DNA of 64,000 nucleotides from Bacteroidota bacterium (lineage in GTDB: Bacteria; Bacteroidota; Bacteroidia; NS11-12g; UBA955). Shown here piece after piece: positions 7,115 through 27,869 of this stretch. The notes under the pieces are model-generated. The model was not told the origin of the DNA. It saw only the letters and a list, made by a program, of their open reading frames with translations, and ran no database searches. Both the position numbers and the translations under genes were made by a program. Numbering within the stretch: position 1 is the first letter of the stretch; each line of letters begins with the position of its first letter. The stretch covers positions 105,366 through 169,365 of the forward strand of contig CAUJCT010000019.1 of assembly GCA_963169345.1 (NCBI GenBank), written 5' to 3'.

Positions 7115-10100
7115 ATGAAACCTAGTTTGTTTAAAACTATAAGAAAAAGGGGAAAATTCATCGCGTGTTTTTTCGCACTCAATCTACTGGTAGAAGTGGT
7201 GGCTCCGTTACAGGCTTACGCGTTGACAGGAGGGCCCAGCCAGCCGGAAGTCACCAGTTTTGAACCGGTGGGAACTACGGAAATGGTGGATTTGTTTAGC
7301 GGTGACTTCAGTTATAACATTCCCTTGTTTGATATTGGCGGCTATCCGGTAAATATCAGTTACCATGGCGGTATATCGATGGATCAGGAGGCGTCTTGGG
7401 TGGGATTGGGCTGGAATATTAACCCAGGAGCTATCAATAGGGGAATGAGAGGAGTGCCGGATGATTTTATTGGTGATGAGGTAAAGAAAACCATGAATAT
7501 CAAAAAAAATGAAACATGGGCAACAAATTTTAACTCTGACGGTGAAATATTTGGATTTACCTCTAGCAAAATAAAATTGGGAGGGAAAACTTTTAATACT
7601 AAAAATTCTTACAATCAAGGCAAAAGGATGAATAAACTTAGCAAATTTAATTTTGGTTTTGGAATAGTTTACAATACTTATAAAGGGATTGGTTATTCTT
7701 TGGATTTGAAATTTGACATTAATAAAACAAGTTATTTTTCTAGGGAGGAATTCAATGAAAACATGGATTTATTAGATAATTTTAAAAAAATTAAAGATGA
7801 CCCTGATTTAGATTTAATTAATAGGGAAGGTTCTAAGGATTATTATCAAGCTTTGGATGCAAATTATAAGAGCACAACTGCACAAAAGGTTGTTAAAAAA
7901 CAATCAAGTTTAAATGCAAATATTAATCTTTCAGCTTCATCGAATGAGGGAGCTAAGATTAACTTGACAATGTCTAATAACTTTCAAGATTTGATGGATG
8001 ATAGAACCAATTTATACAGAACAATAACACCATCAATTGGGTTAGGATATAATAGTTTGCTGGGAGTAAATTCATTTGATGTTGGTTTGTCAAAGCGGTA
8101 TAGCTGGCAAGTGGAGGTAGAAAAGGGAGCATATTATTCAGGCTCTATAAATAGGAGTGTTAATTCGTATATTCCAATAGGTTCATATAGTTATACGCCT
8201 AACATTCACTTTCCTACATTAAGTACATCGCAATCTTATAACGCAACAGTCGGCTTTGATGCATTCGGAGGACACCCAAATATGAGATTAAGCGGCTTCT
8301 ACAATTCTGAGGAGCTAAAGGATTCAAATATTATATATAATGCATTTGGATATTTGCAGGAACAAGAAGTGTTCTGGCATAGAGGAAAAAACTATGTGTT
8401 AATGGATTTTAACAGGGAGAAAGAATCGAAAGGAAATAAAAGCTCAACGCACTTACCTTTATCAAATCATACTTACGATATTTTCATGGTAACTGGCCAG
8501 GGCAATGGTGGCATTTATCGCCCTCATAGAAAGACAATTGGTTTGTTGTGTGACCCATACACTGAAAATAGTAATAAAAAAACTGGAATGAATGACTTCG
8601 GAATTGAGTTAGGATTTGGGGCCAATTTTCATTGGGGATTCAATTACAAAAACAAGGTGCAGAATTCATCTACTGGACTTTGGTATAATAATAATCAAAG
8701 AAATTTTTCAATAAAGTTTAACGAAGATGCTGATTTTTTTAATTCAAGTTTATCTGTTGATTTTTCAAAAAAGAATAATGTACTGCTTAAGGACAAGGAC
8801 AATGAATTAGTAGAGCTATTAAATTATAGAATGGAAGATGGAACTTTGAATAAGAGAAACAACCACTTTTACTTCAAATCTGCAGGAGAGCAAACTCCGT
8901 CTGACAATGATTTAGGAGATAATTGGGGCGGAAAGTTTCCTGTTTCGTTAAGAATAGGAAAGACAGAAGGACATGAGAGAAACTTTAGATTTGGCAAGGT
9001 TACAAACAAATTGAATGAGTCGACTCATGAAGTAAAGGGCCACTCAACATGGAACACCCCGCGTAACAGCGCAATTGAGTATTTATCCGCGGAAGAAGCG
9101 AGTCATGGGGGGATAGGCATGGAACCATTTATTGTAAGCTACCCACAAAATTATTGGACGTATTATATCAAGAGTCAAAATCTCCCGACCGTTGAGGTTG
9201 AAGAACGGTACAATGGAGCAAATGGCGCCAAGGCACATCATATTTCCGAGATCATCACTTATGGAGGTGATGGCATGCGGTATGTGTATGGTTTGCCCGC
9301 TTATAACAAAAAGCAACATGAGGTTAATTTTGCAGTTTCAAAGGACATTGTGGGGGGTGATTTATCTACTCGTTATGAGGATTGGGCCAGAGGGCTTGTT
9401 AAATACGAGCCAGGCCAAGATAATTCGACTAGAAATACCAGAGGGGCGGATAATTTCTTTATGAGCACTGAAATGCCTCCTTATGCACATTCATATCTCT
9501 TGACAGGAGTTCTTTCACCAGATTACTCAGATTTAACTGGTGATGGCATTACAGATGATGACTATGGCAGCGCGGTAAGATTCAACTATTACAAAGTGCC
9601 AGGATCCTATAAGTGGAGGACACCTTATGAAAAGGATTCAGCAAATTTGGATCTAGGGTATATTACTGATTTCAGCGACAATAAAGGTTCGTATGTGTAT
9701 GGAGAAAAGGAGATTTGGTACGTACAATCCATGGAGTCAAAGACGCATGTAGCTGAATTTAAATTATCAAGACGATTTGATGGTCATGGAGTAGCTTCAG
9801 AAAATGGTGGACTGGATACCTCAGAGTCTAATACGCTAATGAAATTGGATTCTATAGTGATATATAGCAAACTGGACATTCTTGCCAATGGCAGGAACGC
9901 AGTGCCTGTAAAGACCATAGTGTTTAAGTACGATTACAGTCTGTGTGCCGGTATACCTAATAATTCTGTAGGACAGGGTAAACTTACTTTAAAAAGCATT
10001 TATTTTACATACGGAAACAGTGGAAAGGGTGTTTTGAACCCTTATCAATTTGAATACTCCAATTTCAACCCGGCATACAGCCATGTGCATTTCGATAAAT

Positions 10101-13100
10101 GGGGCAACTACAAGTATGCGAATGAAAACTTGCCCAACCGGGATTTTCCTTATTCGGATATGGATTCAAACAGGGAAGTATATGACAAGTACGCTAGTGC
10201 CTGGAATCTGACTAAAGTCAAGTTACCTTCAGGAGGGGAGATTAATGTTACTTATGAAGCAGATGATTATGCGTACGTGCAAGATCGACGTGCGATGCAA
10301 ATGATAAAGGTAATAGGAGCAAGTTCTGACTATAAAAATTTCAAATTGTATAATGCCTTAAAAATTAAACCAGATATTTATAAGAAAAACAAACCAATCG
10401 TCGCAACATTATACGATGAAGGTAGAAATAATAATTTTTTGTATTTCAAATTATTGGAAGAACCAGCAGAAATTCCTACTTCAGGTCAATCAGATTATAT
10501 AGTAAATAAATACCTTAAAGATGAAAATGGGCAAAAGATGAGTTTTGTTTATTATAGATTCAAAGTGAATATGGATCCAAGGGCAAAAAATGAAGACCAT
10601 TTTGAATATATTTCAGGGTATGCGGAAATCGAATTAAATAAATGTGGAATTACAGATGATAAAAAATATGGTTTTATAAAACTCAAGGAGGTAGATCAGG
10701 GAGATGTAGGGCTAACCAAGGCACAGCCTATAGCCAAACAAGCTTGGCAGGAAGGTATGCAAAACCTAAGGAAAGTCATGTACCCTGGTAGTGATCAAAG
10801 TCAGCCTGATGTAAATGGAGATAAACAAAGTGCATTTAAAGCTCTGTTGAATTCTTATGGTCAAGCATTGAATATGTTCACCGGTCCTTATCAAAACCTG
10901 AGATGGAAACACATTGCCAAGAATTTCGAAGTGGGTAAGTCGTTCATTAGACTATACAGACCAGATAATTTCAAAGTTGGTGGAGGTAGTCGAGTTAAAA
11001 GAATCACAATTAACGACAATTGGTCGGCTATGAATACTAATCAGGAATCAAATGAGTATGGTCAGGAATACTTTTATTTAACAAAAAACCAAAATGGAGA
11101 GGTAATTAGTAGTGGCGTTGCCTCATACGAGCCATTTGTAGGAGGTGATGAAAATCCATTTAGGATACCGACGTTTTATTCTACAAACAGGTTCATGTTC
11201 CCTGATTTGAATGAATACTTGGAAGAACCCTTTGGAGAATCATTTTTTCCTTCTGCTAGTGTAGGTTATTCTAAAATTATAGTCAAGAATATTCCAAAAC
11301 CAGGTGTCGTCGCCAGCAGTACAGGAAAGATAGTGCATGAGTTCTATACTTATAAGGACTTTCCCATAGTAACTAGGAATACAAATTTGAAATATTTGAC
11401 AAATGGGAATGGAAATTCAAGTGATGAAAAAAATGTAAATAATAAAAAAGCGAAGAAGTTTAGCAAAGCTTTAGCTAGTTTGTTTAGTGTAGTCAAACGC
11501 GATTATATGGCTGCCACGCAAGGATATTCTATCATATTGAATGATATGCATGGAAAGCCAAAGTCAATGAAGGTGTATAGTGCGTTGGACGAGGCTGGAG
11601 ATGATATTGAAAAGTTATTCAGTGGGAGAATGCTCTCTGGAACAGAATATAAATATAAAACAAGTCTATCTGAAAATAGGCATAAGTTTGATGATTTATA
11701 CACTTCAAAGGACACCTTGCTTCCTTTTATTCCCGGAACTGAATTAAACAACACTGTCTGGGTCATGAAGGAAAACGGGGAATTGGTTGAACGAGAAATC
11801 GCAACTTCATATGATGTTTCAGTGGAGACTAAACAATCAAAATCACATTATCGACATGCTGGTGTAGATTTTAATACGGAGAATTTCTTATTAGCTGGAA
11901 TACCATGCCCATATCCTAAATATCTGGTGAATCAATCCTTGTTTCAAGCGGCTATTGTTACCAAGGTGATTCAGCAGTATGGTGTCTTAGAAGAAGTGAT
12001 TGCCTATGACCATTCATCCGTTGTACGGACAAAAAATCTAGTATGGGATGAGCAAACAGGTCAAGTATTATTGACCTCTACAACAAATGAGTTCAATGAC
12101 CCAATCTATAATTTCACCTATCCTGCTCATTTGGCCTATGAAGGCATGGGACCCGCATATAAGAATTTGGATTACGAAACTTATCTAACTATAGGCAGTG
12201 ATGGTGATGTCAATGTCAATATATTAAGTGAAGAAGACCAGGATATGTTCGTTGAAGGTGATGAACTTTTACTACGGAAAGATGAAGTGGTAATACGAGC
12301 GTGGGTATTGAAAGTGGTTAAAAATTCAAGTACAGGCAACTATCATCAGATTCGACTCATAAATCAGGCTGGACATGAAATAGGATCTGGCACATGGTAT
12401 TCTCGAGTAATTCGTTCAGGTAGACGTAATCTTTCTGGAGCTCCAGTTGGTGCTATTACAACCATGTTTAAAGGGATTTTTAACAACGACTCTTCTAAAA
12501 GGTTGAAATTAAATAAAGAAGTTGTACAAAGCGCCGCCATGACCTATTCAGACCAATGGCAGGGGTATGTAGACAAGGCCTCGTTTTTACGGTATGTTTG
12601 CGACACCTCACAGATTGGTAATGAAGAAGCTTATGCCCTAATTAAATCTATAGTGGAAACAGGGAATATCGGAGCATATTATCAGAATGGAAGCAACCTG
12701 TCGCCTGACGCATCAACATTGTCAGCATATACCGGAGGATTAAAAAATTCAGTGGAAAGTTATGCCAGATCTCTTGATGTAACTCAATGTGGTACTAACA
12801 AGGAATTAATCGGGACTTATTTTGGTCAGAGAATCGAAACTCCGGGAGTGTTTAATTTCAAGGCAAAATTCCGATGTGTTGGATCTGGAGATACTGTAAT
12901 ACGTGACCTGACATGCGAAATATTTCTGGAAAAAGTGGATTCTGATTGTGAAATCGAACTTGACAGTTTGGACGAAGTAGGTTCTTATTACCTTGATGCT
13001 GGATATCTGTATTTCAATGGCTATAAAGGAGAGGACTCTTGCCTGTTTAAGTTAACTTTCCCGAATATATGTTTTCTCAAGGTAGATTGTAGATATGTTC

Positions 13101-14293
13101 AAGATTGTGATTATTACGTCGGCAAGATTGTAAACCCTTACGTCAATAACATCCGGGGTGTCTGGAGACAGAAAGAGTCGTTTGCCTATAATTCAGGTAG
13201 AAATTATGAAGTGAAGAGTAACAATAACACAAACATTAGAAAGGATGGGTTGATAAATGACTACCACCCTTTTTGGCTGTTCAAGGATACGTCTGAAAAT
13301 GGCATTTATCAAAGCAATCACAATAAGTGGGTCTCTTCAAGTACTGCGACACTATTTGCTCCTGAGGGCAACGGTCTTGAGGAAATGGACGCTTTAGGGA
13401 TCTATTCTTCCCAACTATTTGGATACAACGATTTGTTGTCTGTTGCCCAGGCTTCAAACGCTAGACATTCCCAGATTGCTAGCGATAATTTTGAAGATTA
13501 TTTCAGTGCTTATGTTGGTTGTCAAAGAGAAAAGCACTTTGATTTCAGGAATGGATTGAATCTCGGTCAAATCACATTGCCAACTTATGCCTATGATTTA
13601 TTGAAAGTAGTGAATGTATTGCCAATTCCATCCTCAACTTTCGCTCATGCGCATATCGCCAGAGATACTGCTCATACAGGCTTGTTCAGCCTTTGCGTTA
13701 ATTCTGGGGCAACTCATTCCAATATCAGAAAACTGGATTATTCTGATTTGGCACTGGCTTCTGGAAATGACAGTCTGTTCAGATTGAAATCTGTAGAGGA
13801 TATGATTACCACTTTTGCTCCTACTAACGGTAGATATGTTTTATCATCCTGGGTCTATCAAACTGCTGAAGATCAGAACAGTCTGAATACATATTCGGAT
13901 GCTTATGTTAATGTCAAGGTCTTTAAGGACGGTACCGCAATTGTAGATAAGAACTATCTGGCATCTGGTAAAATCATAGACAAATGGCAGAGGATATACG
14001 GGGTGCTAGATATCCCGACAGAGTCTGACAGCATACGCGTGACTTTTGTAAATAATGGGGAAAGCAATGCTTATTTTGACGATATAAGGATACATCCTTT
14101 TGATTCAAAGATGATATGCAATGTCTATCATTTCACCAATTTGAAAGTCATAGCAATACTGGATGAGAATAACTTCGCCACTTTTTACGAATACGATAAT
14201 GAAGGTAGTCTGATTCGTGTGAAACGTGAAACTGAAAATGGCATCTTGACCATTCAAGAGTCTAGAAAATCAATTAGAAAAACACCAAATTAA
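7115..14293 (+). CDS. giant (2,392 aa) SpvB/TcB (TcaC)-like toxin-complex protein with an N/K-rich insertion and C-terminal YD-like repeat
   Basis: Signal peptide, then the SpvB N-terminal-domain pattern (GDFSYNIPLFDIGGYPVNISYHGGIS…WVGLGWNINPGAINRGMRGVPDDFIGDE). A mid region resembles TcdB mid domains. C-terminal FYEYDNEGSLIRV is YD-type. Confidence 0.8.
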   Translation: MKPSLFKTIRKRGKFIACFFALNLLVEVVAPLQAYALTGGPSQPEVTSFEPVGTTEMVDLFSGDFSYNIPLFDIGGYPVNISYHGGISMDQEASWVGLGWNINPGAINRGMRGVPDDFIGDEVKKTMNIKKNETWATNFNSDGEIFGFTSSKIKLGGKTFNTKNSYNQGKRMNKLSKFNFGFGIVYNTYKGIGYSLDLKFDINKTSYFSREEFNENMDLLDNFKKIKDDPDLDLINREGSKDYYQALDANYKSTTAQKVVKKQSSLNANINLSASSNEGAKINLTMSNNFQDLMDDRTNLYRTITPSIGLGYNSLLGVNSFDVGLSKRYSWQVEVEKGAYYSGSINRSVNSYIPIGSYSYTPNIHFPTLSTSQSYNATVGFDAFGGHPNMRLSGFYNSEELKDSNIIYNAFGYLQEQEVFWHRGKNYVLMDFNREKESKGNKSSTHLPLSNHTYDIFMVTGQGNGGIYRPHRKTIGLLCDPYTENSNKKTGMNDFGIELGFGANFHWGFNYKNKVQNSSTGLWYNNNQRNFSIKFNEDADFFNSSLSVDFSKKNNVLLKDKDNELVELLNYRMEDGTLNKRNNHFYFKSAGEQTPSDNDLGDNWGGKFPVSLRIGKTEGHERNFRFGKVTNKLNESTHEVKGHSTWNTPRNSAIEYLSAEEASHGGIGMEPFIVSYPQNYWTYYIKSQNLPTVEVEERYNGANGAKAHHISEIITYGGDGMRYVYGLPAYNKKQHEVNFAVSKDIVGGDLSTRYEDWARGLVKYEPGQDNSTRNTRGADNFFMSTEMPPYAHSYLLTGVLSPDYSDLTGDGITDDDYGSAVRFNYYKVPGSYKWRTPYEKDSANLDLGYITDFSDNKGSYVYGEKEIWYVQSMESKTHVAEFKLSRRFDGHGVASENGGLDTSESNTLMKLDSIVIYSKLDILANGRNAVPVKTIVFKYDYSLCAGIPNNSVGQGKLTLKSIYFTYGNSGKGVLNPYQFEYSNFNPAYSHVHFDKWGNYKYANENLPNRDFPYSDMDSNREVYDKYASAWNLTKVKLPSGGEINVTYEADDYAYVQDRRAMQMIKVIGASSDYKNFKLYNALKIKPDIYKKNKPIVATLYDEGRNNNFLYFKLLEEPAEIPTSGQSDYIVNKYLKDENGQKMSFVYYRFKVNMDPRAKNEDHFEYISGYAEIELNKCGITDDKKYGFIKLKEVDQGDVGLTKAQPIAKQAWQEGMQNLRKVMYPGSDQSQPDVNGDKQSAFKALLNSYGQALNMFTGPYQNLRWKHIAKNFEVGKSFIRLYRPDNFKVGGGSRVKRITINDNWSAMNTNQESNEYGQEYFYLTKNQNGEVISSGVASYEPFVGGDENPFRIPTFYSTNRFMFPDLNEYLEEPFGESFFPSASVGYSKIIVKNIPKPGVVASSTGKIVHEFYTYKDFPIVTRNTNLKYLTNGNGNSSDEKNVNNKKAKKFSKALASLFSVVKRDYMAATQGYSIILNDMHGKPKSMKVYSALDEAGDDIEKLFSGRMLSGTEYKYKTSLSENRHKFDDLYTSKDTLLPFIPGTELNNTVWVMKENGELVEREIATSYDVSVETKQSKSHYRHAGVDFNTENFLLAGIPCPYPKYLVNQSLFQAAIVTKVIQQYGVLEEVIAYDHSSVVRTKNLVWDEQTGQVLLTSTTNEFNDPIYNFTYPAHLAYEGMGPAYKNLDYETYLTIGSDGDVNVNILSEEDQDMFVEGDELLLRKDEVVIRAWVLKVVKNSSTGNYHQIRLINQAGHEIGSGTWYSRVIRSGRRNLSGAPVGAITTMFKGIFNNDSSKRLKLNKEVVQSAAMTYSDQWQGYVDKASFLRYVCDTSQIGNEEAYALIKSIVETGNIGAYYQNGSNLSPDASTLSAYTGGLKNSVESYARSLDVTQCGTNKELIGTYFGQRIETPGVFNFKAKFRCVGSGDTVIRDLTCEIFLEKVDSDCEIELDSLDEVGSYYLDAGYLYFNGYKGEDSCLFKLTFPNICFLKVDCRYVQDCDYYVGKIVNPYVNNIRGVWRQKESFAYNSGRNYEVKSNNNTNIRKDGLINDYHPFWLFKDTSENGIYQSNHNKWVSSSTATLFAPEGNGLEEMDALGIYSSQLFGYNDLLSVAQASNARHSQIASDNFEDYFSAYVGCQREKHFDFRNGLNLGQITLPTYAYDLLKVVNVLPIPSSTFAHAHIARDTAHTGLFSLCVNSGATHSNIRKLDYSDLALASGNDSLFRLKSVEDMITTFAPTNGRYVLSSWVYQTAEDQNSLNTYSDAYVNVKVFKDGTAIVDKNYLASGKIIDKWQRIYGVLDIPTESDSIRVTFVNNGESNAYFDDIRIHPFDSKMICNVYHFTNLKVIAILDENNFATFYEYDNEGSLIRVKRETENGILTIQESRKSIRKTPN

Positions 14294-14295: not shown

Positions 14296-15150
14296 ATGAA
14301 AAAAGGAACAGTAGCCATAATACTCCTTGTCTTTAGCGTCCTATCTGGATTTGCTATTGGGGTCTTTAATGTGATAATGGATGACTCAATGGAAAATACG
14401 GAGTCAATAGAATCATATATGGAAGAAAATGATTCAAGTTATAAACGAGTAGATCCATTCGCAGCTTCGGAACTAATTTCAGTATTGAAAAAAATGAAAG
14501 AATCAAAAATTATTCATGCGAAATTTAATGTGAAGCTGTTTAGCATGGATCAAATGAAGCAGTTTGAATCTTTTGAAGGGGAGTACATTCGAAATGAAAT
14601 GGGTGAAACTTATATCTCTTCTTATGAATCTGAGAATTTAATGACTTCGGAATATTTTATTGCTGTTGATCACTTGGAGAAGATGATCTATGTTGAGAAA
14701 CCTGAATTTATGGGGTCTGGAGACGTTTCATCTATGAATATACTCTTCGAACTGGATTCTATTGTTAATTTTCAAGACAGTTCTATTGTTTACAATATGA
14801 TAGATGGTTCATATTCAAAATTGAGCGTCTTTATTGAAACACCCTCCTATTATCAGATTGACATAATTTATGAAACTGCAACAAAAAAAATTTCAAAGCT
14901 TGTTCTTTACCCGTTTCAAGATGTTTTTATTGAGCCTGAGTCTGGTGAAATCGGGAAAATTGAAGTAGAAAACACGGAAAATACTATTGTAGAAGAAGTT
15001 CCTGGACTCATTGTCATTGAATATACCAAACTAGAATGTAATTCGGAAATAAAACAACTAAAAATTGATTCTAAACGATATTTTGAAAATAAAGATGGAA
15101 AACTGGTAGTAAATCGTAAATACAAAAACTATGAAATCGATTACGAATAA
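14296..15150 (+). CDS. membrane-anchored hypothetical protein between the two giant genes
   Basis: 284 aa with N-terminal TM/signal (VAIILLVFSVLSGFAIGVF). It lies 2 nt after the upstream stop and overlaps the downstream giant ORF by 20 nt. Confidence 0.55.
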   Translation: MKKGTVAIILLVFSVLSGFAIGVFNVIMDDSMENTESIESYMEENDSSYKRVDPFAASELISVLKKMKESKIIHAKFNVKLFSMDQMKQFESFEGEYIRNEMGETYISSYESENLMTSEYFIAVDHLEKMIYVEKPEFMGSGDVSSMNILFELDSIVNFQDSSIVYNMIDGSYSKLSVFIETPSYYQIDIIYETATKKISKLVLYPFQDVFIEPESGEIGKIEVENTENTIVEEVPGLIVIEYTKLECNSEIKQLKIDSKRYFENKDGKLVVNRKYKNYEIDYE

Positions 15151-21100: not shown

Positions 21101-24100
21101 TCTACACTGGATCCGGATCAAAACCTTTCAGGATTTACAATTTGGTTCGCTTCGGTCAAGGAAAATTTGTTTGACAATTCATCGGACCTGATCCTATCAA
21201 GCTATGACGACATCAGTTACAGCGAAGACTTCTTTGCAACTGAAAACACCTCGAATTGGTACGCGAAAATCAAATTCCGTGATTTGGATGAAAAGTCCAG
21301 GACACGATTTGAGGACACATTGATTGCTTGGGTCAACTCATTCGGAGGTTTTGAACTAAAACGCTCGTATTATGTGCCGGAACTTTCCTTGCATGGGGAT
21401 AATCTTCAGATTTGTGTCGTTGATGGAGGAGATACCTTATGTACATATTGCGATAGTGTGAAGGCCTATGTCAGGGATTACCAATACAGCACATACGCCG
21501 ATTCTCTCAATGTACGATTAGCCATGAGCCCAGTCTACTTGGAGCCGTATCTGAAGTTAAAGACAGGCGTTGATGTGCAAGTGTTTGATGGGCCAGGAAC
21601 TTGCGTCAGTTGTGCAAACAAAAGCTTGTACATATGCGACCAGCCCGAACAAAAGCTTCTTGGTATAGTTGAACTATTAAACCGAATCGCCAAATTAAAA
21701 AAACTCAATTCGACGAATTACGCGTTAAATGCAAGTTTTACCACTTTGTTAAATTCCATCAAGCCTGAAGACATCGTGCTTAATTCACCTTCCTACAGTT
21801 ACAAGCCAAATACCCAGGGAGGTTGGCATGTAATGCTTAAATACAATACCACTTTTTCTGAAGTGTTGTTTTTAAGTATAGATACGAATGATTTTCAGAA
21901 AATATTCAATCCTGGCATCGATACATTCAAACAAATTCGTCCAATTTTGGAAGATGGTGTTGTCAGCGGGTTTAGTATTGAAGGCGTAGACAGCTTGTAC
22001 AACAGTCTGACATTCAATTGCTATATGAATGGACTCAAGGCCTACGCGTGTTGTGAATTGCCTGTAACTATGCTTTGTCCCAGACCTTTCACAAGGGAGT
22101 ATGACCAGTATGAATCACCATGCAAGCAGGAAGAAGTAGTACAGGCAGTAAATGCCGGTACTTTTAAGTATTACGCATATCTGGATTCCATTCGCAACGA
22201 TATCAAGATACGTTACCAGACCTTTTGCCTCACGCATGCCAAGGAAGATATTCGGATAGGTCATAACCAACACAGGTACCACAGTACCTTGTACTATTAC
22301 GACCAAGCTGGAAATCTGAGCAAGACGGTTCCTCCTCAAGGGGTCAATGAACTGGCCTTGTCAGCCCAAAGGTTGGATAGCCTGGAAGTCTATAGATCCA
22401 ACATCAACCGAAACGATAGTTTTGTAAATTCGAATCATACGATGTCGACCCTATACAGATATAACGCGTTGAACCAGTTGATCTGGCAAAAAACGCCTGA
22501 TGGCGGTGAATCAAATTTCTGGTACGACAGACTTGGAAGACTCGTGTTGAGTCAGAACGCGAACCAATTGGCCAGAAGTGGTGTTGCGCAAAAGATATAC
22601 AGTTATACCAAGTTTGATAATTTGGGAAGAATTTTGGAAGTAGGTGAAATTAGTAACAGGACGATCAGCCAGGATTCCCTAATCAGTGATTTGGAATATT
22701 ACGACTTTTGGTTATCAGGGTCACTTGCAAGGATTCAAATAACAAAGACTTTTTATGATTATCCAATAACAGAGTCTATTGACTTGATGTTTGTGGAAGG
22801 CCAGAGAAATTTGAGAGGACGCGTCGCTTCCATCTGTTATTACAACGCTTATGCTAGTGCCGATACTACCGCGTATACCCGGGCTACGCATTACAGTTAT
22901 GATATACACGGGAATGTGGATCATCTCGTGCAAGATTTTCCAGATATGGAATCTTTGGGGCATAGATACAAGCATCTTGCATATACGTACGACGTGATAA
23001 GCGGTAAGGTGCATTCGGTCGCCTATCAAGCTGGGCAAGCGGACCAATGGTTTCACCGCTATCAATACGATTCGGACAACAGGTTGGTGTTGGCCGAGAC
23101 CAGTGCCGATAGCGTGATATGGGATAAGGACGCCGAATACACCTATTACAAGCATGGGCCTATAGCCAGAACTATACTAGGAGAAAAAGCTGTGCAAGGT
23201 GTTGATTACGCCTACACCATTCATGGTTGGATTAAGGGCGTGAACAGCAATATCTTGAATCCAAGTTATGACATTGGCTCAGATGGATATTGCTACTTGA
23301 GAACCTATACGGCTAGAGATGCCTTCGGATACACTATAGGCTATTACAACGATATAGCTGGAAGTGTGTTTGATGGGGATTATAAGAGTATTGGAAGCAC
23401 CGGTTTTGAATCGGGTAAATCAGGCAGCCCTATAGGTACTACTAGTGGAAATTTGTACAACGGAAATATCAGCCACATGGTCAGTTCGGTAAATGTATTA
23501 TTAGCCATGAATGGAGGCAGTCCTTTGGCCACATCCTACCGATACGACCAGTTGAACCGGATAAAACAAGTACAAACCTATAATGGCATAGACCTGGATA
23601 GTAACAAGTGGGATCCAGGGAGCTTCCAAACAGCGTGGAATGAAAAGTTTGATTTTGATGCCAACGGCAACATCACCGGACTACTCAGGTATGGGGCGAG
23701 TACAGTTATGGACAAGCTTACTTATAATTACAAATCTGGCAATAACCAGTTAGTATCCGTGGATGATACAGTGAATGCCACTAGGTATTTAAGTGATGTG
23801 GACAACCAGATGGCTGGCAATTACCGTTACGACCATATTGGTAACTTGACACACGATTCTCTGGAACAGATTGATAGCATCTATTGGAATGTGTATGGGA
23901 AAATTTCGAAGATACAACGGGATGCGAATAGCACGAGGGCGAATCTTGATTTTCACTACGACGCGATGGGGCAACGGGTTCTGAAGATTGTGAAGAAAGG
24001 CGAACTGGAGAAGGACTGGCTGTACACCTGGTACGTACGTGACGCACAAGGTAACATCATTTCAACGTATACAAAAAAGAGTTATTTTGAGAATATTGGG

Positions 24101-26467
24101 GATACATCATTATACAGGCAAATCAATAACAGCCTGATCTCCCAGATGAATACCGACAGTCTGGCCAATTTCCTGAAAGAGAAATTCAAGGGGTCGCAAT
24201 TCGATGCCGCGTTGTCGGATGTAATTAATAATAGGGGCTTTTTAGAAGATTGGTACACGCTGTATGGTGGAGATAGCCTGTTAACTTATGACAGTTCATT
24301 CGCCCAGGATTTTTTCCAGTATTATTGCGATTATTATAATGATAACTCGGATAGGCAGGGGTTCTTTGATAAGCTTTGGGCAATAGGACAAGACAGCCTG
24401 ATTTCCTTGGTAGGTAAAGGCTGTTACAACCTCAACGATCTTATGACCGCTCTGCTCGGATACGACGGGTCTGACGAGATATTGAATGCTCTGGGTGCTA
24501 TCGACATATCAAGGGTGGAGCAAATCTATTACATGAGCGGTGGAATGCCTCCGGCCCCATCCTTGGCTACCATGATTGGTACTATTAGAAGTAATCCTGA
24601 CGCGGTTGTGGCAAATTCCATAACGAACTGGTTCAACATTTATGAGATCGAAAGCGTAATAAGAGGCTTGAGTTCAACATTAAGGGATAATGGATTTGCG
24701 GCTTATGACTTTTGTAACACAATGAGTCACCTGGCTGGTTGTGGATTCACTGACTACTGGTACGGTTATGTCTACGACCATGTGGATGAGGACACCTTTA
24801 AAAATATAATTTATCAGGTTTCCGAATCATCCTATCTGACATCCTTCTTATTGACTAAGGATATAATGGCAGTAAATAAACTCGCAAGTTTGCAAAGCGA
24901 CATCTTGTCAGACGCGTTGAGAGAATTTGATGGCTTGGATATTATGTCGTATTTAGGTTATATTTATAAACGCTTCGGTAAGAACATTTACAATCAAGTC
25001 ATTGAGGATTTAGGAGGCAATATTAAGATAATCAAGGCTTTGACATTAGATGAACAACATATTTACGGCTCCAGTAGACACGGCATCCGCAAGCCAAAGG
25101 CGGTTTTGGCAAGCAAGACGTACGAGTTGGAAGAGATCGGAGAAAACGGGGAATTATCCAGTATAGGATATTCCACAGACAGCACGATTTCTTGGTTGAA
25201 CTACAGATACTTTACCCGGACTTTGACCAAGAAACAATACGAGTTAAGCAACCACTTAGGAAATGTTTTGGCTACAATCTTGGATAGGAAGACGCCTGTA
25301 ATAGAAGAAGAAGGAGGCGATACGTTATTGTATTATATTGCTGATGTTAGTACCGCTCAATATTATTATGCCTTCGGGAGCGTAATTCAGGAGATGAAGT
25401 ACGCCCACGTGGAGGAGGGTGATACGGCTGGCTACATTTTTGGGTTTAATGGGAAAGAATATGATATTGAAACCAAATTACAAGATTATGGATTTAGAAT
25501 ATACAATAACGGAATTGGAAAGTTTCTTAGTGTAGACCCATTGACTGATGATTATCCATTTTATTCTCCTTATCATTTCGCAGGTAATACCCCAGTTTAT
25601 GCTATAGATATGGACGGGTTAGAGCCAATCCCTCCTAGAGTAATGTATGATCCGATTGGCGCGTTTTGTGATTGGATTTGGGGTGAAACTCCTGAAGAAA
25701 GAAAGAAGTCAATGGATTACATTAATTCGACTATGGGAATAGGGCCAGATCCTGAAGGAATTACTTATTCGAATTCAGAATTAACTTTTTGGGCTGGAGT
25801 TTCAATTTCAGCAAATTCATTAAATGATTATAATAATCTAACTTACAATCCGTTTGGTGCATCATCTAGATTTTCTGGTAGTACAGCCAAAACAAAACCT
25901 ACACCAACAAATTCTTCCAATTCTACTAAAAAGCCTTATTATAGCTCAAGTTCAAGCACAACCAAAACTAAATATGGTACAAGTACTTCAACTAAACCAG
26001 TACTTAAATATACTTCTACATATAGTAGCAAAGTAAATTCAAATATTGCATTTTCATATGGAATTAAATCCGCGTGGGCTTTAGACAAATCTGGGATGTA
26101 TACTCAAAGAGGTAGAAATTTGCAATCTCTAAATTCAAAATACATATACAAGCCTGCTGGATATAGGGATTTAGATGAATTTCATAATATCAATAATTTT
26201 GTACTTTTTGATTTTTATCATTTTGGAACTCAACATGCAGTTAGTTTTAAATCATGGGGAGGTAATACTTGGAATAAGTCGCTTTGGATTGGATATATTG
26301 ATAAAATCTCAAAAACAATTGGGACTACTCATAAAGGATATTTTATTCAATCAGCATCACTTGATGTTGTTGTACCTAATGATGCTGCCAAGCAAAAATT
26401 AGAATCTGAATTAGATGCATATGCAAAGAAAAATAATGTAAAATTAAATATTACAGTTCAAAATTAA
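15131..26467 (+). CDS. giant (3,778 aa) RHS/YD-repeat polymorphic toxin (TcC/Rhs-like) with ~2,370-aa Cys-rich N-terminal extension, RHS core and variable C-terminal toxin tip
   Basis: Many YD repeats (YYYDQAGNL, YRYNALNQL, WYDRLGRLV, YTYDVISGKV, YQYDSDNRLV, YRYDQLNRI, YRYDHIGNL, FHYDAMGQRV). RHS core signature (GKFLSVDPLTDDYPFYSPYHFAGNTPVYAIDMDGL) parallels Rhs GRFISQDP…YxYxxNNPVxxVDPLGL. Confidence 0.85.
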   Translation: MKSITNKYLRNLSKLKWFANLGPTNQILYRYLSLLSLLISSFIPISSNAQFMPEKFSSICSGEKLKTIITSSSLPLKIDSVMDDKLTMIESGGAWRSDFKHRSITNRITICVKDTNRAMQKFDYLFNLSIDTINSLNQKGSFNVVMRVSYDPASHKAYMDKSVFQFMGCHKFSIKLNGITDSALLNPSSFDAASMQTNFYIESEIIIERYYLDAYSTPIESLNHSFVGKDRLMFYWTPPSSSAPNMYELEWTYIDTAGMDPDSIRYDFNSNSSRVLLSQTSFEINTIYDAGVILYRVRRVRPDSVYFKYNKYSDWFPIGLSDKGFVSAYSSNKVFVASHEQMGKNWDYQIAFAEEGLKKEVVNYFDGSLKRRQGVTLSNSNNFTLVDESIYDYHGREVIKIIPAPTDSGTIKFYKDFNLNVSGQPYSARDFDSTDAMEDRCNGQYKAAPLGTQNGAGRYYSTDNPDKSNENAAIPDAGGYPLVQTQLMPDPTGRVASQGGIGVAHQLGSGHETKYSYGTSTQEELDKMFGSEMGVVSHYKKNSVTDPNGQVSISYIDQHGRVVATSLAGGVPGMVDTVGSYMCEEFVMNKLSKNNVPIDNSLVVRYGFSVFASHVNKIYYNLQSDKFLFGCIGLNHCYTCRYNVDMYLTDDCGNNLLQFNRIIGVHQDTSCGILEFTLVDSIDAILGSVSPNSDSVALTLTPGNYFLYKVLRVNTDSLDFAIDEVLFNDSTCYKTIDEFIEVELSKIDFNECDCDTCGLDSMTYCDSRKTLMLSDFEPLVGQFALNDELDYSDSTSILRYYGEGYFYQYVDANAYKDEYGVKDTIWIDGMPILPTELEPEDFTNYYKETWGEALLPYHPEYCQYRYCMDSLQPSLLFDEDMMAIENYDTAMFYGYLDPLKYKAEYPDIVSDPFFVNSGGTLNWRGNQMKDKLEYMDDFSQSDSNDPLSIGASSSDIWQFSKSIGYCESISDSLERAECFKNRYDDLTINNWMDDEFGRNNYWNKFKTLYFQLKQHYIEEKMNELSFSIACIPKIGTNNCPRSEYYNKVSHFVRYNNKLANVDSTPNKEDLLDSLKTYGSCEANMQHWEEALSLCENFSVHKDSILYYFKKVCQAGGSSQSSLNIIGSSEIPSSLQGNLAYKSFHEVLVHFLGSNYKNEWCNIDLINMPRAYNTNYLNEGGSEVTECLCDNLKQEIKLFKGCHSKFDSTELSIEGHLVNDFINTMVDDNLFNITDTASRTLSAYAGMADLVNRLFVPIMGGVPGNYKIKMHKDAVYGNEKSYFIYRTIPSEGCKFSFRLNPNVSNFTNIDTTKSFKMTVRSDGSINYRFYKFGGATVDVFVYNTCFNSLGKCSENLSYAEISDFTVFLNDKFNSNMTDIEVEQLVAQCGNAGLPSIVLDKKNTYYLRYGSCPEHYRNYKEAKDIYLLSFLNEMMRPNEYWRNTMTGFELGDQSKRYLNTYEPNFHCNSGKADFLVQTKDYHLYKEFVGTIHDNYWWVNAKYVVDSSLTVLGCTSSCVKVYDTIFLNNYNNDPYFVGGFWIGARCDLYKDSTCFVSFGDPFKQLGLAGRPSISQIDSLTNYRWDGSVGNYVVTAFNRSSGDSIVLTMMNQCKAQCNPLFKVKDIAVNYKDVFAIPGKGGFARLKDVTARTGFDRGYGWPFLDMLNGLTKADNLSGGAIKDIRKIQKTHLLNNYFDQLIPEAGSYYYSNELTNDSVLVGYLQDNIGASSKCSFGLRKWGSDRSFSFADLDVFKDMTADPVAIEDGMKNERLDMAGYFFAIKGGHLNSPGDTTWYDLRGWSSCWKFFEISALSGNSRVIFNLPEGLSANCGCYACTETKSFYDSLYNEYPNLYPGHPNYAQIVTNYINRKLNTSLSFTEIQTNWDECGVSFRRFTSIPESDYRLSVKNTDCVNHGDSMLYELMDDLGLSFGVTKVKDEDSSVFLLNFSGLLPTEIATIQDSIAKYFSSPYCDAFIHWKHYRSDYDMILYNLDSASTLDPDQNLSGFTIWFASVKENLFDNSSDLILSSYDDISYSEDFFATENTSNWYAKIKFRDLDEKSRTRFEDTLIAWVNSFGGFELKRSYYVPELSLHGDNLQICVVDGGDTLCTYCDSVKAYVRDYQYSTYADSLNVRLAMSPVYLEPYLKLKTGVDVQVFDGPGTCVSCANKSLYICDQPEQKLLGIVELLNRIAKLKKLNSTNYALNASFTTLLNSIKPEDIVLNSPSYSYKPNTQGGWHVMLKYNTTFSEVLFLSIDTNDFQKIFNPGIDTFKQIRPILEDGVVSGFSIEGVDSLYNSLTFNCYMNGLKAYACCELPVTMLCPRPFTREYDQYESPCKQEEVVQAVNAGTFKYYAYLDSIRNDIKIRYQTFCLTHAKEDIRIGHNQHRYHSTLYYYDQAGNLSKTVPPQGVNELALSAQRLDSLEVYRSNINRNDSFVNSNHTMSTLYRYNALNQLIWQKTPDGGESNFWYDRLGRLVLSQNANQLARSGVAQKIYSYTKFDNLGRILEVGEISNRTISQDSLISDLEYYDFWLSGSLARIQITKTFYDYPITESIDLMFVEGQRNLRGRVASICYYNAYASADTTAYTRATHYSYDIHGNVDHLVQDFPDMESLGHRYKHLAYTYDVISGKVHSVAYQAGQADQWFHRYQYDSDNRLVLAETSADSVIWDKDAEYTYYKHGPIARTILGEKAVQGVDYAYTIHGWIKGVNSNILNPSYDIGSDGYCYLRTYTARDAFGYTIGYYNDIAGSVFDGDYKSIGSTGFESGKSGSPIGTTSGNLYNGNISHMVSSVNVLLAMNGGSPLATSYRYDQLNRIKQVQTYNGIDLDSNKWDPGSFQTAWNEKFDFDANGNITGLLRYGASTVMDKLTYNYKSGNNQLVSVDDTVNATRYLSDVDNQMAGNYRYDHIGNLTHDSLEQIDSIYWNVYGKISKIQRDANSTRANLDFHYDAMGQRVLKIVKKGELEKDWLYTWYVRDAQGNIISTYTKKSYFENIGDTSLYRQINNSLISQMNTDSLANFLKEKFKGSQFDAALSDVINNRGFLEDWYTLYGGDSLLTYDSSFAQDFFQYYCDYYNDNSDRQGFFDKLWAIGQDSLISLVGKGCYNLNDLMTALLGYDGSDEILNALGAIDISRVEQIYYMSGGMPPAPSLATMIGTIRSNPDAVVANSITNWFNIYEIESVIRGLSSTLRDNGFAAYDFCNTMSHLAGCGFTDYWYGYVYDHVDEDTFKNIIYQVSESSYLTSFLLTKDIMAVNKLASLQSDILSDALREFDGLDIMSYLGYIYKRFGKNIYNQVIEDLGGNIKIIKALTLDEQHIYGSSRHGIRKPKAVLASKTYELEEIGENGELSSIGYSTDSTISWLNYRYFTRTLTKKQYELSNHLGNVLATILDRKTPVIEEEGGDTLLYYIADVSTAQYYYAFGSVIQEMKYAHVEEGDTAGYIFGFNGKEYDIETKLQDYGFRIYNNGIGKFLSVDPLTDDYPFYSPYHFAGNTPVYAIDMDGLEPIPPRVMYDPIGAFCDWIWGETPEERKKSMDYINSTMGIGPDPEGITYSNSELTFWAGVSISANSLNDYNNLTYNPFGASSRFSGSTAKTKPTPTNSSNSTKKPYYSSSSSTTKTKYGTSTSTKPVLKYTSTYSSKVNSNIAFSYGIKSAWALDKSGMYTQRGRNLQSLNSKYIYKPAGYRDLDEFHNINNFVLFDFYHFGTQHAVSFKSWGGNTWNKSLWIGYIDKISKTIGTTHKGYFIQSASLDVVVPNDAAKQKLESELDAYAKKNNVKLNITVQN
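25622..26464 (+). other. C-terminal variable toxin tip (~281 aa) of the RHS protein downstream of the DMDGL core boundary
   Basis: Sequence after DMDGL(EP) has a Ser/Thr/Lys-rich linker then a ~150-aa domain I cannot assign. Local AT content rises sharply relative to the RHS repeat region. Confidence 0.6.
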
Positions 26468-26473: not shown

Positions 26474-27307
26474 TTGAAAAATTTATCATTTTCAAAACGC
26501 AAAATAAATAACCAAATGACTATACTTGAAGCATTAGAAAAATGTGATAAGAAGCTTGAGTTTCATTTTTCATTTGATCTCAAAACAAATTATAATGAGT
26601 TAGTTTTATATATTTTATACACTAACCCGTTAAAATTAAGAATGGATTTGATGTCAATTTCTGGATATGTAGAAGATGCGCCAATAATAGAATCTGAACT
26701 TAAAGGCTATTTATATGAAACAGAAGAAAGATCATATCAGTTTTATGACAAAGAAAAACAAGTTGAATATATGATTATGAGAAATTATCATAAAGCAGGT
26801 GGTTCTTATCAACTTTATGTAACAATAAATACTACAAAATTTGAATATACCCCGAGTTTTGAGTGGATATCGGATCTTTATTCTAAATTTCCTTTCATAA
26901 TTGGTTATGTATATGACCAATTGTTTGTAGATTTTCAATCTTCTACTCAGCCTATCATAATGAGAGTAAATCATATTGACCCTGGAGAATACAGCCATTT
27001 GGTTTCTATAAATGCTATAGGTCATGAATCTTTAGATGTTTCTAGGAATTATGGGCGAAAATGCCTTGTAGGTTCACTTTGGCTAATGGCTTCCTGGCAA
27101 ATGTTTATTACTAGTCGTTTTGAAGAAAAGCTTGGATCAAAATTTATCTCCCCCCAAAATGTTAAGGTTTTATATAATAATGAATTTAGAGTTATTCAAC
27201 TTTATGATAATCCCTTTGAAAGTCATTTAAAAGAGAATTTAGATAAATTAAAAGCAATTCGAGATTTAAATCATTTTGATGAAATTGAATACAGAGACAA
27301 TAAATAA
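26474..27307 (+). CDS. putative cognate immunity protein of the RHS toxin tip
   Basis: 277-aa ORF starting 7 nt after the toxin stop and sharing its AT-rich composition. Assigned by the polymorphic toxin/immunity positional rule only. Confidence 0.5.
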   Translation: MKNLSFSKRKINNQMTILEALEKCDKKLEFHFSFDLKTNYNELVLYILYTNPLKLRMDLMSISGYVEDAPIIESELKGYLYETEERSYQFYDKEKQVEYMIMRNYHKAGGSYQLYVTINTTKFEYTPSFEWISDLYSKFPFIIGYVYDQLFVDFQSSTQPIIMRVNHIDPGEYSHLVSINAIGHESLDVSRNYGRKCLVGSLWLMASWQMFITSRFEEKLGSKFISPQNVKVLYNNEFRVIQLYDNPFESHLKENLDKLKAIRDLNHFDEIEYRDNK

Positions 27308-27869
27308 AACCAAACTAAACAAACGATTATTTTGGATTAAATTTCTTTCCTTAATTTACATTACTTTTTCGATTTGTCTGATTTTAGGATTGGAATTAAG
27401 GTTGTCTGAATTTATCCAAGGATTATTGTTTATTCTTGTTTTTAACCTAATTATAAAATCAGTACAATTAAGAAGGTTGATTGAATATCTTTTTTATACA
27501 TACATTGTTTACAATATTACTGAATATATAATTTTAAGATTTTATTTTAAACTGCAACTATTATATATTCTTGAGTTCATTAAATGGTTTCTTTTATCTA
27601 TTCTTGGATTATCTCTTTTTAAAACATCTTTTAAGATTTATGGAATTTCAATATTGCTAAGTTCTATACTACTAGTTGTTGCTCCAATTGTATATGCAAA
27701 TTTAGTTAAAATTGGTTTTGTAGAAATTAATCTAATGTCAAAAAGAATTATTTTTATTTTTCTCGAAGTTGTAATGTTGATTCCTTTTTGCATTTTGATC
27801 TTTCTCTCAAGTTCGCAAAAAAAAGTTGTAAAGTATATTTTAGATGATAATATAAATTTAGATGGTTGA
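27276..27869 (+). CDS. polytopic membrane protein (possible second immunity or accessory protein, could be spurious in AT-rich DNA)
   Basis: 197 aa with ~5 hydrophobic segments. It overlaps the putative immunity gene by 32 nt. Confidence 0.35.
   Translation: MMKLNTETINKTKLNKRLFWIKFLSLIYITFSICLILGLELRLSEFIQGLLFILVFNLIIKSVQLRRLIEYLFYTYIVYNITEYIILRFYFKLQLLYILEFIKWFLLSILGLSLFKTSFKIYGISILLSSILLVVAPIVYANLVKIGFVEINLMSKRIIFIFLEVVMLIPFCILIFLSSSQKKVVKYILDDNINLDG

Follow-up and report, generated by a model that had tools for sequence, protein, structure and literature searches.

RHS toxins are among the commonest bacterial weapons, and they are known to be delivered by the T6SS, by Tc injectors or, in Gram-positive bacteria, by the T7SS or Sec. 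The Bacteroidota, which are dominant in soils, waters and guts, encode thousands of Rhs proteins of the DUF6443 type, and the literature searched contained no paper on the outer-membrane route of these proteins. Toxins of the 'TcdB/TcaC-type', in which a signal peptide, SpvB and an integrin-like propeller are fused to RHS and a toxin, are a class reported in Bacteroidetes (Zhang et al. 2012, PMC3482391).

In this study, we focus on a window of 64,000 nucleotides from a Bacteroidota contig, in which a sequence-only reading had flagged positions 7115-27869 as a Tc-toxin-like locus built on two very large proteins, named here giant1 (2,392 aa) and giant2 (3,778 aa). The observation is confirmed, all ORF positions of that reading being exact, and its overall interpretation is partly supported, namely for giant2 as an RHS toxin, but not for the TcB/TcC identity of the pair. 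The unit proved larger than the flagged stretch and extends from 4875 to 30370 (window positions, all its genes lying on the + strand). At least 580 related loci were found, of which 80 independent ones were examined as a comparison set, with counts given out of 81. The predominant order among the 81 loci is p798, a probable outer-membrane protein (OMP) of about 800 aa, followed by p379, a secreted protein of about 380 aa, a Skp/OmpH gene and a lipoprotein gene (these two not always present), giant1, a LolA3-family gene and giant2. Giant2 is thus accompanied by giant1 and by a LolA3-family protein, located between the two giants in 65 of the 81 loci, and usually also by the secreted protein, the Skp/OmpH homologue, the small lipoprotein and the protein with the OMP-type C-terminus. 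Since this gene order recurs and the gene junctions in the window are overlapping or tight, the cluster is read as a functional unit, and each of its components carries, by inspection, an N-terminal export signal (signal peptide or lipobox). Carriers include Chitinophaga, Flavobacterium, Pedobacter, Mucilaginibacter, Terrimonas, Saprospiraceae and others. The cluster is real and widespread in Bacteroidota, and no description of it was found in the literature searched. We estimate at roughly 55% the probability that the window harbours a single copy of an envelope system conserved across the Bacteroidota and organised around an RHS polymorphic toxin and that the export mechanism proposed below is correct. 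The divergently transcribed LuxR-type response regulator, first taken as part of the locus, was rejected as a dedicated regulator, as it occurs near only 6-7 of the 81 loci and lies outside the conserved system.

Judged by its sequence, giant2 (15131..26467) is a genuine RHS polymorphic toxin of the DUF6443 type, bearing a Sec signal peptide (..ISSNA/QF, by inspection). Matches to PF05593, TIGR03696 and DUF6443 uphold its earlier description as an RHS protein with a core and a variable tip. Its conserved N-terminal module (residues 91-760, 15401..17410), found in about 66 of 80 loci, comprises DUF6443 and the first RHS repeat. The DUF6443 match (PF20041, residues 353-431, nt 16187-16423, E 4e-11, 43.7 bits for a cutoff of 27.8) was obtained when this part of the protein was scanned as a segment, and the first RHS repeat is at residues 543-570. 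The 2,696 representatives of this module all occupy residues ~60-750 within proteins 2,400-5,800 aa long, and DUF6443 is also present in the relatives P0121-P0125, P0163, P0169 and P0173. The sequence-only reading had regarded both giants as far larger than their canonical counterparts; these sizes are in fact normal for the two families, the relatives of giant2 covering the same 2,400-5,800 aa and those of giant1 spanning 1,800-2,500 aa.

The coverage profile across loci delimits a Cys-rich middle region (residues 761-2290, 17411..22000), semi-conserved up to residue 1200 and then hypervariable up to 2290, where it is matched by the closest relatives only. About 55 Cys are found between residues 600 and 2400, a content in keeping with an envelope location. 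The Pfam scan of this region returned no match, and BLAST self-comparison detected no internal repeats in giant2; one relative harbours BNR/YCF48 and DUF5122 propeller repeats at the corresponding position. The Cys-rich middle of the ~2,370-aa N-terminal region noticed earlier is hence retained, but this region does not lack a YD start, since DUF6443 and the first YD repeats lie at about 350-600. The YD/RHS shell (residues 2291-3000, 22001..24130), conserved in about 50-59 of 80 loci, matches PF05593 (E 8.6e-7 with the whole protein, 1.8e-9 on segment 2371-2970) and, weakly, Tse5. It is followed by an insertion (residues 3001-3300, 24131..25030), likely helical by composition, that shows no conservation across loci; most relatives lack it, and P0157, a relative of 51% identity, has it. 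The Rhs-associated core (residues 3301-3497, 25031..25621) ends in ...GNTPVYAIDMDGL and matches TIGR03696 at residues 3412-3497 (E 1.7e-12, 47.7 bits for a cutoff of 32.5). It carries the motifs ...FLSVDP... and ...AIDMDGL, with DMDGL (residues 3493-3497) as a predicted autocleavage motif of the DPxGL type. Giant2 thus appears to possess its own full-size shell, made of DUF6443 and the first YD repeats (about 350-600) together with ~900 aa at 2,291-3,497. Pfam and NCBIfam searches revealed no PAAR, VgrG or clade domain in it.

The remaining residues (3498-3778, 25622..26464) form a putative variable C-terminal toxin with an S/T-rich linker. Beyond residue ~3500, giant2 is conserved in none of the 80 loci, and from nt ~25750 the GC content drops from ~0.42 to ~0.30 over the toxin and the two following genes. 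A match to PF21111 (CDI_toxin_EC869_like) at only E 0.033 gives a weak restriction-endonuclease-like hint, the search of the toxin domain against the PDB gave no match, and one relative ends in Peptidase_M91. Directly 3' of the toxin, p277 (26474..27307, GC 0.24-0.33) is a candidate cytoplasmic immunity protein, with no family match and no homologue in the 81 loci. The next gene, p197 (27276..27869, GC 0.22-0.24), codes for a multi-pass membrane protein according to its hydrophobic segments (by inspection), and represents a second immunity or accessory candidate that likewise has no homologue in the 81 loci. The earlier account of a variable tip followed by immunity-like genes agrees with this loss of conservation, the GC drop and the locus-specific p277 and p197; the tip is, on sequence grounds, a swappable low-GC toxin with immunity-like genes downstream.

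Giant1 (7115..14293; signal peptide at residues 1-36, ..LQAYA/LTGG, by inspection) is the conserved partner of giant2; over 5,000 proteins of ~2,200 aa, unannotated and missed by current domain databases, make up its family. Its predicted layout combines sheets like those of an Rhs cocoon with an SpvB-N-like fold, a CBM-like domain and a terminal YD hairpin; the AF2 models behind the SpvB/Rhs-like fold are of moderate confidence. The most conserved N-terminal motif, defined by invariant columns of the family alignment (residues 37-125, 7223..7489; LTGGPSQPE...VDLFSGDF.YNIPL...GLGWN...R.MRG.PDDF), resembles the SpvB/TcB N-terminus by eye only. Smith-Waterman alignment of this motif with SpvB was not significant against shuffles (z about 1-1.6), and hhalign gave a probability of 0.13% between the giant1 family profile and Salmonella SpvB (from pSLT), and of <2% between the giant1 profile and either the shell or the N-module profile of giant2. 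No Pfam or NCBIfam match to SpvB (PF03534), TcdB_toxin_midN/C or RHS was obtained for giant1, whose whole sequence and five segments were scanned for SpvB with nothing at E<=10, or for 20 relatives; CBM_4_9, in two relatives, was the sole family match. In addition, no beta-propeller of the TcB mid-domain (PF12256/PF12255) was detected in giant1, and PDB searches (phmmer, profile hmmsearch) returned no TcB, only a CBM4 at E 0.0096. The profile searches (Pfam, NCBIfam, hhalign) therefore do not support the SpvB N-terminal domain of the sequence-only reading in giant1 or the 20 relatives, and what persists of it is a possible SpvB-N-like fold in the AF2 models.

In these models, the motif at residues 37-125 would form the SpvB-N-like fold together with a highly conserved, confidently modelled beta-rich core (residues ~700-1060, 9212..10294). 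In the N-terminal half, an amphipathic hairpin array (residues ~130-525, 7502..8689) consists of about 12 amphipathic beta-hairpin strands, each long (13-19 residues). Amphipathicity and generic OM-barrel matches make this array, which interrupts the SpvB-like domain, a candidate for a beta-barrel embedded in the membrane; the region has a pLDDT of 50-80 (AF2). A Foldseek search of the PDB with the N-terminal half yielded nothing at E<=1e-3, the best match being perforin-type pores with a probability of 0.11. The C-terminal half, which includes a CBM-like beta-sandwich (residues ~2175-2340, 13637..14134), is similar to CBMs and to binary-toxin receptor-binding domains (CDTb RBD1, iota Ib). The protein terminates in a nearly invariant YD-type hairpin defined on the family alignment (14135..14290; NNYATFYEYD.EG.L.RVKKETE.GI.TIQESR). 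This hairpin alone, among all segments of giant1, can be aligned to the shell profile of giant2, and the alignment is weak.

Between the two giants, a protein of 284 aa (14296..15150) was assigned to the LolA3 family, with a predicted LolA-like periplasmic chaperone fold. It matches NF053579 with E 1.5e-13 over model positions 28-231 of 232, at 50.8 bits, below the trusted cutoff of 83 bits; all of 37 syntenic LolA3 homologues match this model (best E 3.7e-53), and comparison of the LolA3 profile with the PDB was uninformative. Previously described as membrane-anchored, this protein does have an N-terminal signal or anchor, and it is now placed, as a probable member, in the orphan LolA3 family. 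Mutants and structures of LolA3 (Fjoh_0605, PGN0947) have been published with its function left open; these studies found neither a gliding or T9SS phenotype nor pairing with LolB, and do not mention the cluster neighbourhood (PMC11885536, PMC13103446). LolA3 is also present in species such as P. gingivalis.

Among the other components, p379 (4875..6014, signal peptide by inspection) is the first gene of the operon in the window, and iterated HMM searches placed homologues at the same position in 62 of the 81 loci; at some loci, a protein of 1,600-2,300 aa that shares its C-terminal domain takes its place. No Pfam or PDB match was found for p379, and hhalign detected no similarity of p379 to giant1 or to the N-module of giant2, nor of p798 to giant1. 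The OmpH/Skp-like periplasmic chaperone (6019..6519), syntenic in 32 of the 81 loci, was correctly recognised from the start, its PF03938 match (E 5.7e-8, 33.5 bits) exceeding the gathering score of 32.4. The small lipoprotein (6491..7102, lipobox ...LLLVNAC by inspection) has syntenic homologues in 54 of the 81 loci and no Pfam or NCBIfam family match. The last member, p798 (27974..30370), has homologues in 37 of the 81 loci, normally immediately 5' of p379 and usually as the first gene. It displays a signal peptide, a central coiled coil (~residues 170-350) and a C-terminus with an OMP beta-signal (...GRLVLLWSW); a W or F is the C-terminal residue in 43 of 63 relatives, with alternating hydrophobic residues. 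Its profile retrieved coiled-coil matches only from the PDB, and p798 and 31 relatives matched no Pfam domain, hence no POTRA/Omp85, and no PorP/SprF model. Amphipathicity and the C-terminal motif make it a probable outer-membrane beta-barrel. The low counts for OmpH and p798 are partly due to flank limits and divergence.

Taken together, the cluster is most likely a Sec-dependent system, self-contained, for the export and presentation of an RHS toxin. Both giants would cross the inner membrane via Sec, and the Skp-like and LolA3 proteins would then serve in the periplasm as holdases for the giants or for their amphipathic segments. The p798 protein, and probably the hairpin array of giant1, would insert in the outer membrane with the assistance of the lipoprotein. 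Giant1, through its divergent SpvB/Rhs fold, CBM-like domain and YD hairpin, might dock the giant2 cocoon and either present it at the cell surface or aid its passage through the outer membrane. Target binding would fall to the CBM carried by giant1 together with the variable middle of giant2, and the toxin, freed inside the cocoon by autoproteolysis, would be delivered to a neighbouring cell, the producer being protected by p277 and/or p197. A bolder form of this proposal, which we hold as tentative and rather doubtful, is that the cluster represents an unrecognised, Bacteroidota-specific pathway of outer-membrane export and delivery, composed of the giant1 barrel in its SpvB/Rhs-like scaffold, p798 and the orphan LolA3 family as a dedicated chaperone in the periplasm. 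Giant1 would then be a chimera whose barrel resides in the outer or target membrane and which, with p798, translocates, docks or injects the cocoon. If true, this would be a new type of secretion system for Rhs cocoons of ~420 kDa, independent of the T6SS, T9SS, TcA and TPS.

Other readings share part of these features. In a canonical Tc toxin, giant1 and giant2 would be TcB and TcC, forming a split cocoon that docks on a TcA encoded elsewhere, but several features that define such a cocoon are absent here, namely the SpvB match, the propeller and a signal-less start. To our knowledge, Tc B and C subunits have no signal peptides, whereas both giants bear Sec signals. The DUF6443, first YD repeats and ~900-aa shell of giant2 would suffice for a closed cocoon alone, and neither the large ORFs of the window nor the conserved genes of the 81 loci include one of TcA size. 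The absence of TcA and of T6SS/PAAR genes noted earlier is thus borne out, T6SS genes, PAAR and VgrG being found neither in the window nor in the conserved neighbourhood, and we give the Tc reading very little probability. Giant1 could instead be co-secreted and act on the target as a translocator substituting for TcA, its CBM binding glycans and its hairpin barrel forming the pore. The long amphipathic hairpins, the weak best Foldseek match to perforin-type pores and the likeness of the C-terminal half to CBMs, CDTb RBD1 and iota Ib agree with this, and the dedicated Skp-like and LolA-like holdases could keep the hairpins soluble. However, a barrel in the producer outer membrane fits the same features equally well, the hairpin region is modelled with low confidence and the perforin match is of low probability, and an unexplained route through the producer outer membrane would be needed for proteins of 260 and 420 kDa, so we regard a translocator as unlikely.

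Both giants might also be exported by the T9SS through a C-terminal signal that escaped recognition; the accessory proteins would then, as in the sprB operon, be no more than chaperones or anchors of the PorP/SprF kind. T9SS cargo too starts with a Sec signal, the C-terminus of giant1 is nearly invariant, and the window carries Por_Secre_tail domains at 30450-32153 and 55655-57265(-) and a CHU_C domain at 39182-42103(-). The Pfam and NCBIfam scans by which these three sorting domains (PF18962/TIGR04183, CHU_C) were recognised in neighbours detected no type A or B CTD in either giant, the C-terminus of giant2 is a variable toxin that cannot serve as a conserved sorting signal, and p798 has no PorP/SprF model match, which makes this route distinctly unlikely. 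The chance that the system is not primarily a weapon but a teneurin-like complex for surface recognition or adhesion, with a structural role for the RHS shell, appears slight indeed. The autocleavage-type motif of the Rhs core is intact, the hypervariable low-GC C-terminal cassette with its lineage-specific genes is a signature of toxin/immunity exchange, and a relative has a Peptidase_M91 effector tip.

A large subset of the DUF6443-type Rhs proteins of Bacteroidota has a fixed set of partners, which provides a concrete and testable candidate for their export machinery. The cluster further offers a functional context for LolA3, for which neither deletion nor crystallisation has revealed a function. 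Among the carriers, Flavobacterium, Chitinophaga and Pedobacter can be grown in culture, and at least some flavobacteria are genetically tractable.

Compared with the Tc BC complexes (TcdB2-TccC3, YenB/RHS2), the present system has Sec signals on both proteins and neither a TcA, a TcB propeller nor an SpvB or TcdB_mid sequence signature. Giant2 possesses its own N-terminal DUF6443 and YD start and a variable insert of ~1,500 aa, and the cluster, restricted to Bacteroidota, contains dedicated Skp-like, LolA3, lipoprotein and OMP-like genes. The 'Tc toxin' genes of Amoebophilus are canonical A/B/C homologues and unrelated to the present system. The 'TcdB/TcaC-type' toxins (PMC3482391) combine, as the present system does, a Sec signal with RHS and SpvB-like modules, and likewise have a polymorphic toxin at the C-terminus. 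However, the SpvB-like module is here a separate protein of 2,392 aa, missed by the SpvB profile and lacking any detected propeller; the RHS protein carries DUF6443 instead, and the conserved accessory genes are absent from that description. The T6SS Rhs effectors (RhsA, Tse5, Tse15, RhsP) differ in that the present proteins lack T6SS linkage as well as any PAAR, VgrG or clade domain, are predicted to be Sec-exported and are three to four times larger. The likeness to the Tc BC cocoon and to T6SS Rhs proteins would thus concern toxin encapsulation only, the export route probably being different and self-contained. Unlike teneurins and bacterial teneurin-like proteins, giant2 is encoded in an operon with exchangeable toxin and immunity genes, a separate giant partner and a set of chaperones. 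In other respects, the system recalls TPS/CDI (TpsB-TpsA, CdiB-CdiA), where a giant Sec-dependent toxin is likewise encoded beside an outer-membrane protein (a probable one here) and an immunity gene, and where periplasmic chaperoning is expected. It departs from them in that p798 has no POTRA/Omp85 signature, an RHS cocoon takes the place of the filamentous haemagglutinin repeats, and a second giant protein and LolA3 are part of the cluster.

The cluster encodes an RHS polymorphic toxin; all of its components bear Sec signals, and a fixed partner set is conserved throughout the phylum. When one genome per species was scanned, at least 580 cluster loci came to light, carried by Chitinophaga, Flavobacterium, Pedobacter, Mucilaginibacter, Terrimonas, Taibaiella, Saprospiraceae, Cytophagales and others. 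Homologues of giant1 (2,392 aa; 7115-14293) number more than 5,000 in a 90%-clustered database; they are 1,800-2,500 aa long, all unnamed and nearly all devoid of any Pfam domain. Gene order was compared in 81 loci, 80 from the genome scan and one (L001) from a metagenome contig identical to part of the window, the homologues being collected by phmmer and then iterated HMMs. The dominant order starts with a p798-like protein (~750-850 aa) and a p379-like protein (~370-390 aa, replaced in some lineages by a 1,600-2,300-aa protein sharing its C-terminal domain), followed by OmpH (32/81 loci), a small lipoprotein (54/81), giant1, a 230-300-aa protein (65/81) and giant2, the 3,778-aa RHS protein (15131-26467; 68/81). 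Five MAG records bearing the Bacteroidota-type cluster (L002, L010, L015, L022 and L037) are titled Rhizobium, Hydrocarboniphaga or Burkholderiales; these are likely mislabelled or contaminated bins rather than a real occurrence in Proteobacteria.

With regard to the window, the ORFs claimed by the sequence-only reading are present at their exact coordinates, with identical gene calls in an NCBI assembly, and the OmpH/Skp homologue is confirmed by Pfam. The unit, placed by that reading at 7115-27869, actually spans 4875-30370, because the gene for p798, a 798-aa probable outer-membrane protein usually encoded first, upstream of the secreted p379 (4875-6014), lies here downstream of the immunity-like genes (27974-30370). 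This is a local rearrangement of the cluster; a p798 homologue is similarly downstream in the related locus L031, and inverted in several others. Intergenic distances range from -32 to +12 nt between 4875 and 27869; a 104-nt gap then precedes the p798 gene, and another of 79 nt separates it from p567 (567 aa; 30450-32153, same plus strand), whose product bears a type A C-terminal sorting domain of the T9SS; a terminator-like hairpin comes next. Since p567, like p277 and p197, has no counterpart in the other loci of the 81-locus set, it is probably an unrelated neighbour. The proposed LuxR-type response regulator is indeed divergent and Pfam-confirmed, but it does not belong to the system, since just 6-7 of the 81 loci have it nearby; a TM2-domain protein upstream of the regulator (2012-2671, plus strand; PF05154, E 8e-20) shows no apparent link to the cluster. 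Further away, on the minus strand, PLD-like nuclease, SNF2 and helicase domains are combined in a 1,077-aa protein (43776-47009) that looks like a defence or restriction protein. A few kb from it, also on the minus strand, lies a tyrosine integrase that carries an Arm DNA-binding domain (51117-52340); together they may mark a mobile or defence island. What looks like a copper-resistance module (57639-63900, minus strand) pairs a 746-aa multicopper oxidase with a nearby 805-aa heavy-metal P-type ATPase containing HMA domains.

The RHS nature of giant2 stands, with Pfam RHS repeats and the Rhs-associated core TIGR03696 above cutoff (E 1.7e-12). A signal peptide (ISSNA/QF, about residue 49) precedes a conserved N-module (residues ~91-760, weaker to 1200) that includes DUF6443 (353-431; E 4e-11 when the segment was scanned) and the first RHS repeat (543-570). 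At 50% clustering, 2,696 representatives of this module are found, in every case at residues ~60-750 of a protein 2,400-5,800 aa long, so that giant2, previously considered unusually large, is of typical size for its own family. About 55 Cys lie between residues 600 and 2400, and residues 1200-2290 find matches in the closest relatives only. In P0169, a 4,459-aa relative, BNR/YCF48-type and DUF5122 beta-propeller repeats occupy this variable middle region (residues ~1778-2553). The region thus seems to accommodate different binding modules, which recalls the teneurin NHL propeller. The conserved YD shell (residues 2291-3000) is interrupted just before the Rhs core by an insertion of ~300 aa (24131-25030, residues 3001-3300), likely helical by composition, absent from most relatives and present in the 51%-identical P0157. 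The core itself (residues 3301-3497) ends in VYAIDMDGL.

The 281-aa C-terminal tip that follows is conserved nowhere among related loci, and GC content drops from a level of ~0.42 to 0.22-0.30 beyond nt ~25750, in a stretch that takes in p277 (26474-27307) and p197 (27276-27869). Taken together with the C-terminal Peptidase_M91 effector of another giant2 relative, these features give the tip and p277/p197, at the sequence level, the textbook hallmarks of an exchangeable toxin/immunity cassette in a polymorphic toxin. The sole hint at an activity of the putative toxin is a match to a restriction-endonuclease-like CDI toxin (E 0.033). In two loci (L049 and L064), the full-length giant2 gene is followed downstream by short ORFs of 79-145 aa that match giant2 and may be orphan Rhs C-terminal fragments, as in other polymorphic-toxin loci.

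The SpvB N-terminal domain formerly assigned to giant1 is not reproduced by sequence models, since Pfam, NCBIfam and PDB searches with the whole protein, five segments (E<=10) or a 46-sequence profile gave no match, except for a CBM4-like stretch near the C-terminus. Pfam searches with 21 members, hhalign against SpvB from pSLT and against the giant2 shell, and shuffle-controlled Smith-Waterman were likewise negative for SpvB/RHS homology. The protein begins with a signal peptide (LQAYA/LTGG) and closes with an almost invariant YD hairpin of ~50 residues. AF2 models built with 33 homologues for residues 30-1200 and 1201-2392 separately reached pLDDT 67.6 (about 85-93 over residues ~660-1050) and 76.9, respectively. 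No beta-propeller, a fold suggested for a structural check, was found among the best 60 structural matches of either half; for the N-half, Foldseek returned nothing at E<=1e-3, its best, weak matches being long-hairpin barrels and pores. On our reading, giant1 would be very distantly related to the SpvB/Rhs-shell fold class and would not be a TcB. Inside the SpvB-like part, residues ~130-525 form an insertion of about 12 strands of 13-19 residues, with one face 65-79% hydrophobic and the other 2-17% across the family. The strongest dyad-amphipathic windows concentrate in residues 65-552 (15 of 27, or 3.1 per 100 aa), against 0.65 per 100 aa in the rest of giant1 and 0.57 in the giant2 Rhs shell. 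As a single-layer Rhs shell has no lipid-like face, this hairpin region, modelled at low confidence, is regarded as a candidate membrane beta-barrel.

Among the smaller partners, p798 starts with a signal peptide and has a coiled coil in its centre, its PDB profile matches being coiled coils only, and neither it nor its relatives match a Pfam family. Of 63 relatives, 43 have W or F as the C-terminal residue, and hydrophobic residues alternate towards this end, features typical of the beta-signal of outer-membrane proteins. No relatives of known function were detected for p379 and the lipoprotein (Pfam/NCBIfam and, for p379, PDB profile searches). The 284-aa protein encoded between the giants (14296-15150) matches NCBIfam LolA3_fam (NF053579) near end to end, below the trusted cutoff (E 1.5e-13); all 37 syntenic homologues match the model (best E 3.7e-53), and on these profile matches it is assigned to LolA3. 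LolA3 was named in Flavobacterium johnsoniae (Fjoh_0605), where its deletion left gliding and T9SS unaffected (PMC11885536). The crystal structure of P. gingivalis LolA3 revealed a LolA-like fold lacking the LolA and LolB hallmarks and not pairing with LolB, from which its authors concluded a separate function (PMC13103446). Neither paper considers the gene neighbourhood, and this family, left without an assigned function in both, gains a functional context from its position between the giants in 65 of the 81 loci.

We propose, with a probability of about 0.55, that both giants would be exported via Sec, and held in the periplasm by the Skp-like and LolA3 proteins, while p798, and probably the giant1 hairpin array, would become embedded in the outer membrane. 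Giant1 would then dock, present or help translocate the giant2 cocoon, target binding would fall to the variable region of giant2 and the CBM of giant1, and the toxin, released autoproteolytically inside the shell, would be delivered, while p277 and/or p197 would protect the producer. That giant1 serves as an outer-membrane anchor or translocon of the producer is a tentative part of this scheme, held with much less confidence than the whole; its acting instead as a pore in the target membrane, substituting for TcA, seems unlikely. Two further T9SS substrates encoded on the minus strand, one with PKD repeats and a CHU_C (type B) sorting domain (39182-42103) and one with a Por_Secre_tail (55655-57265), indicate that the host has a T9SS, but no CTD was detected in the giants, and their being T9SS cargo with an unrecognised signal is slightly less likely still. 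A non-toxic, teneurin-like adhesion complex is the least plausible reading, and we consider it very improbable.

The locus is a real feature, and the sequence-only reading of it as an unusual Tc-like pair that brings its own means of delivery is partly right. To our knowledge, Tc B and C subunits have no signal peptides; giant1 has one, lacks the TcB sequence signature and propeller, and has no TcA partner in the window or the 81 loci, making a canonical BC pair with TcA encoded elsewhere improbable. POTRA/Omp85, the features of TPS, are likewise absent from the cluster, and no description of it was found in the literature searched. As in Tc BC cocoons and T6SS Rhs effectors, the toxin is encapsulated, the PAAR/VgrG features of the latter being absent here. 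Zhang et al. 2012 (PMC3482391) catalogued in Bacteroidetes the 'TcdB/TcaC-type' polymorphic toxins, which combine signal peptide, SpvB, propeller and RHS and which the cluster also resembles; the cluster is best filed as an RHS polymorphic toxin with a previously undescribed, conserved envelope module.
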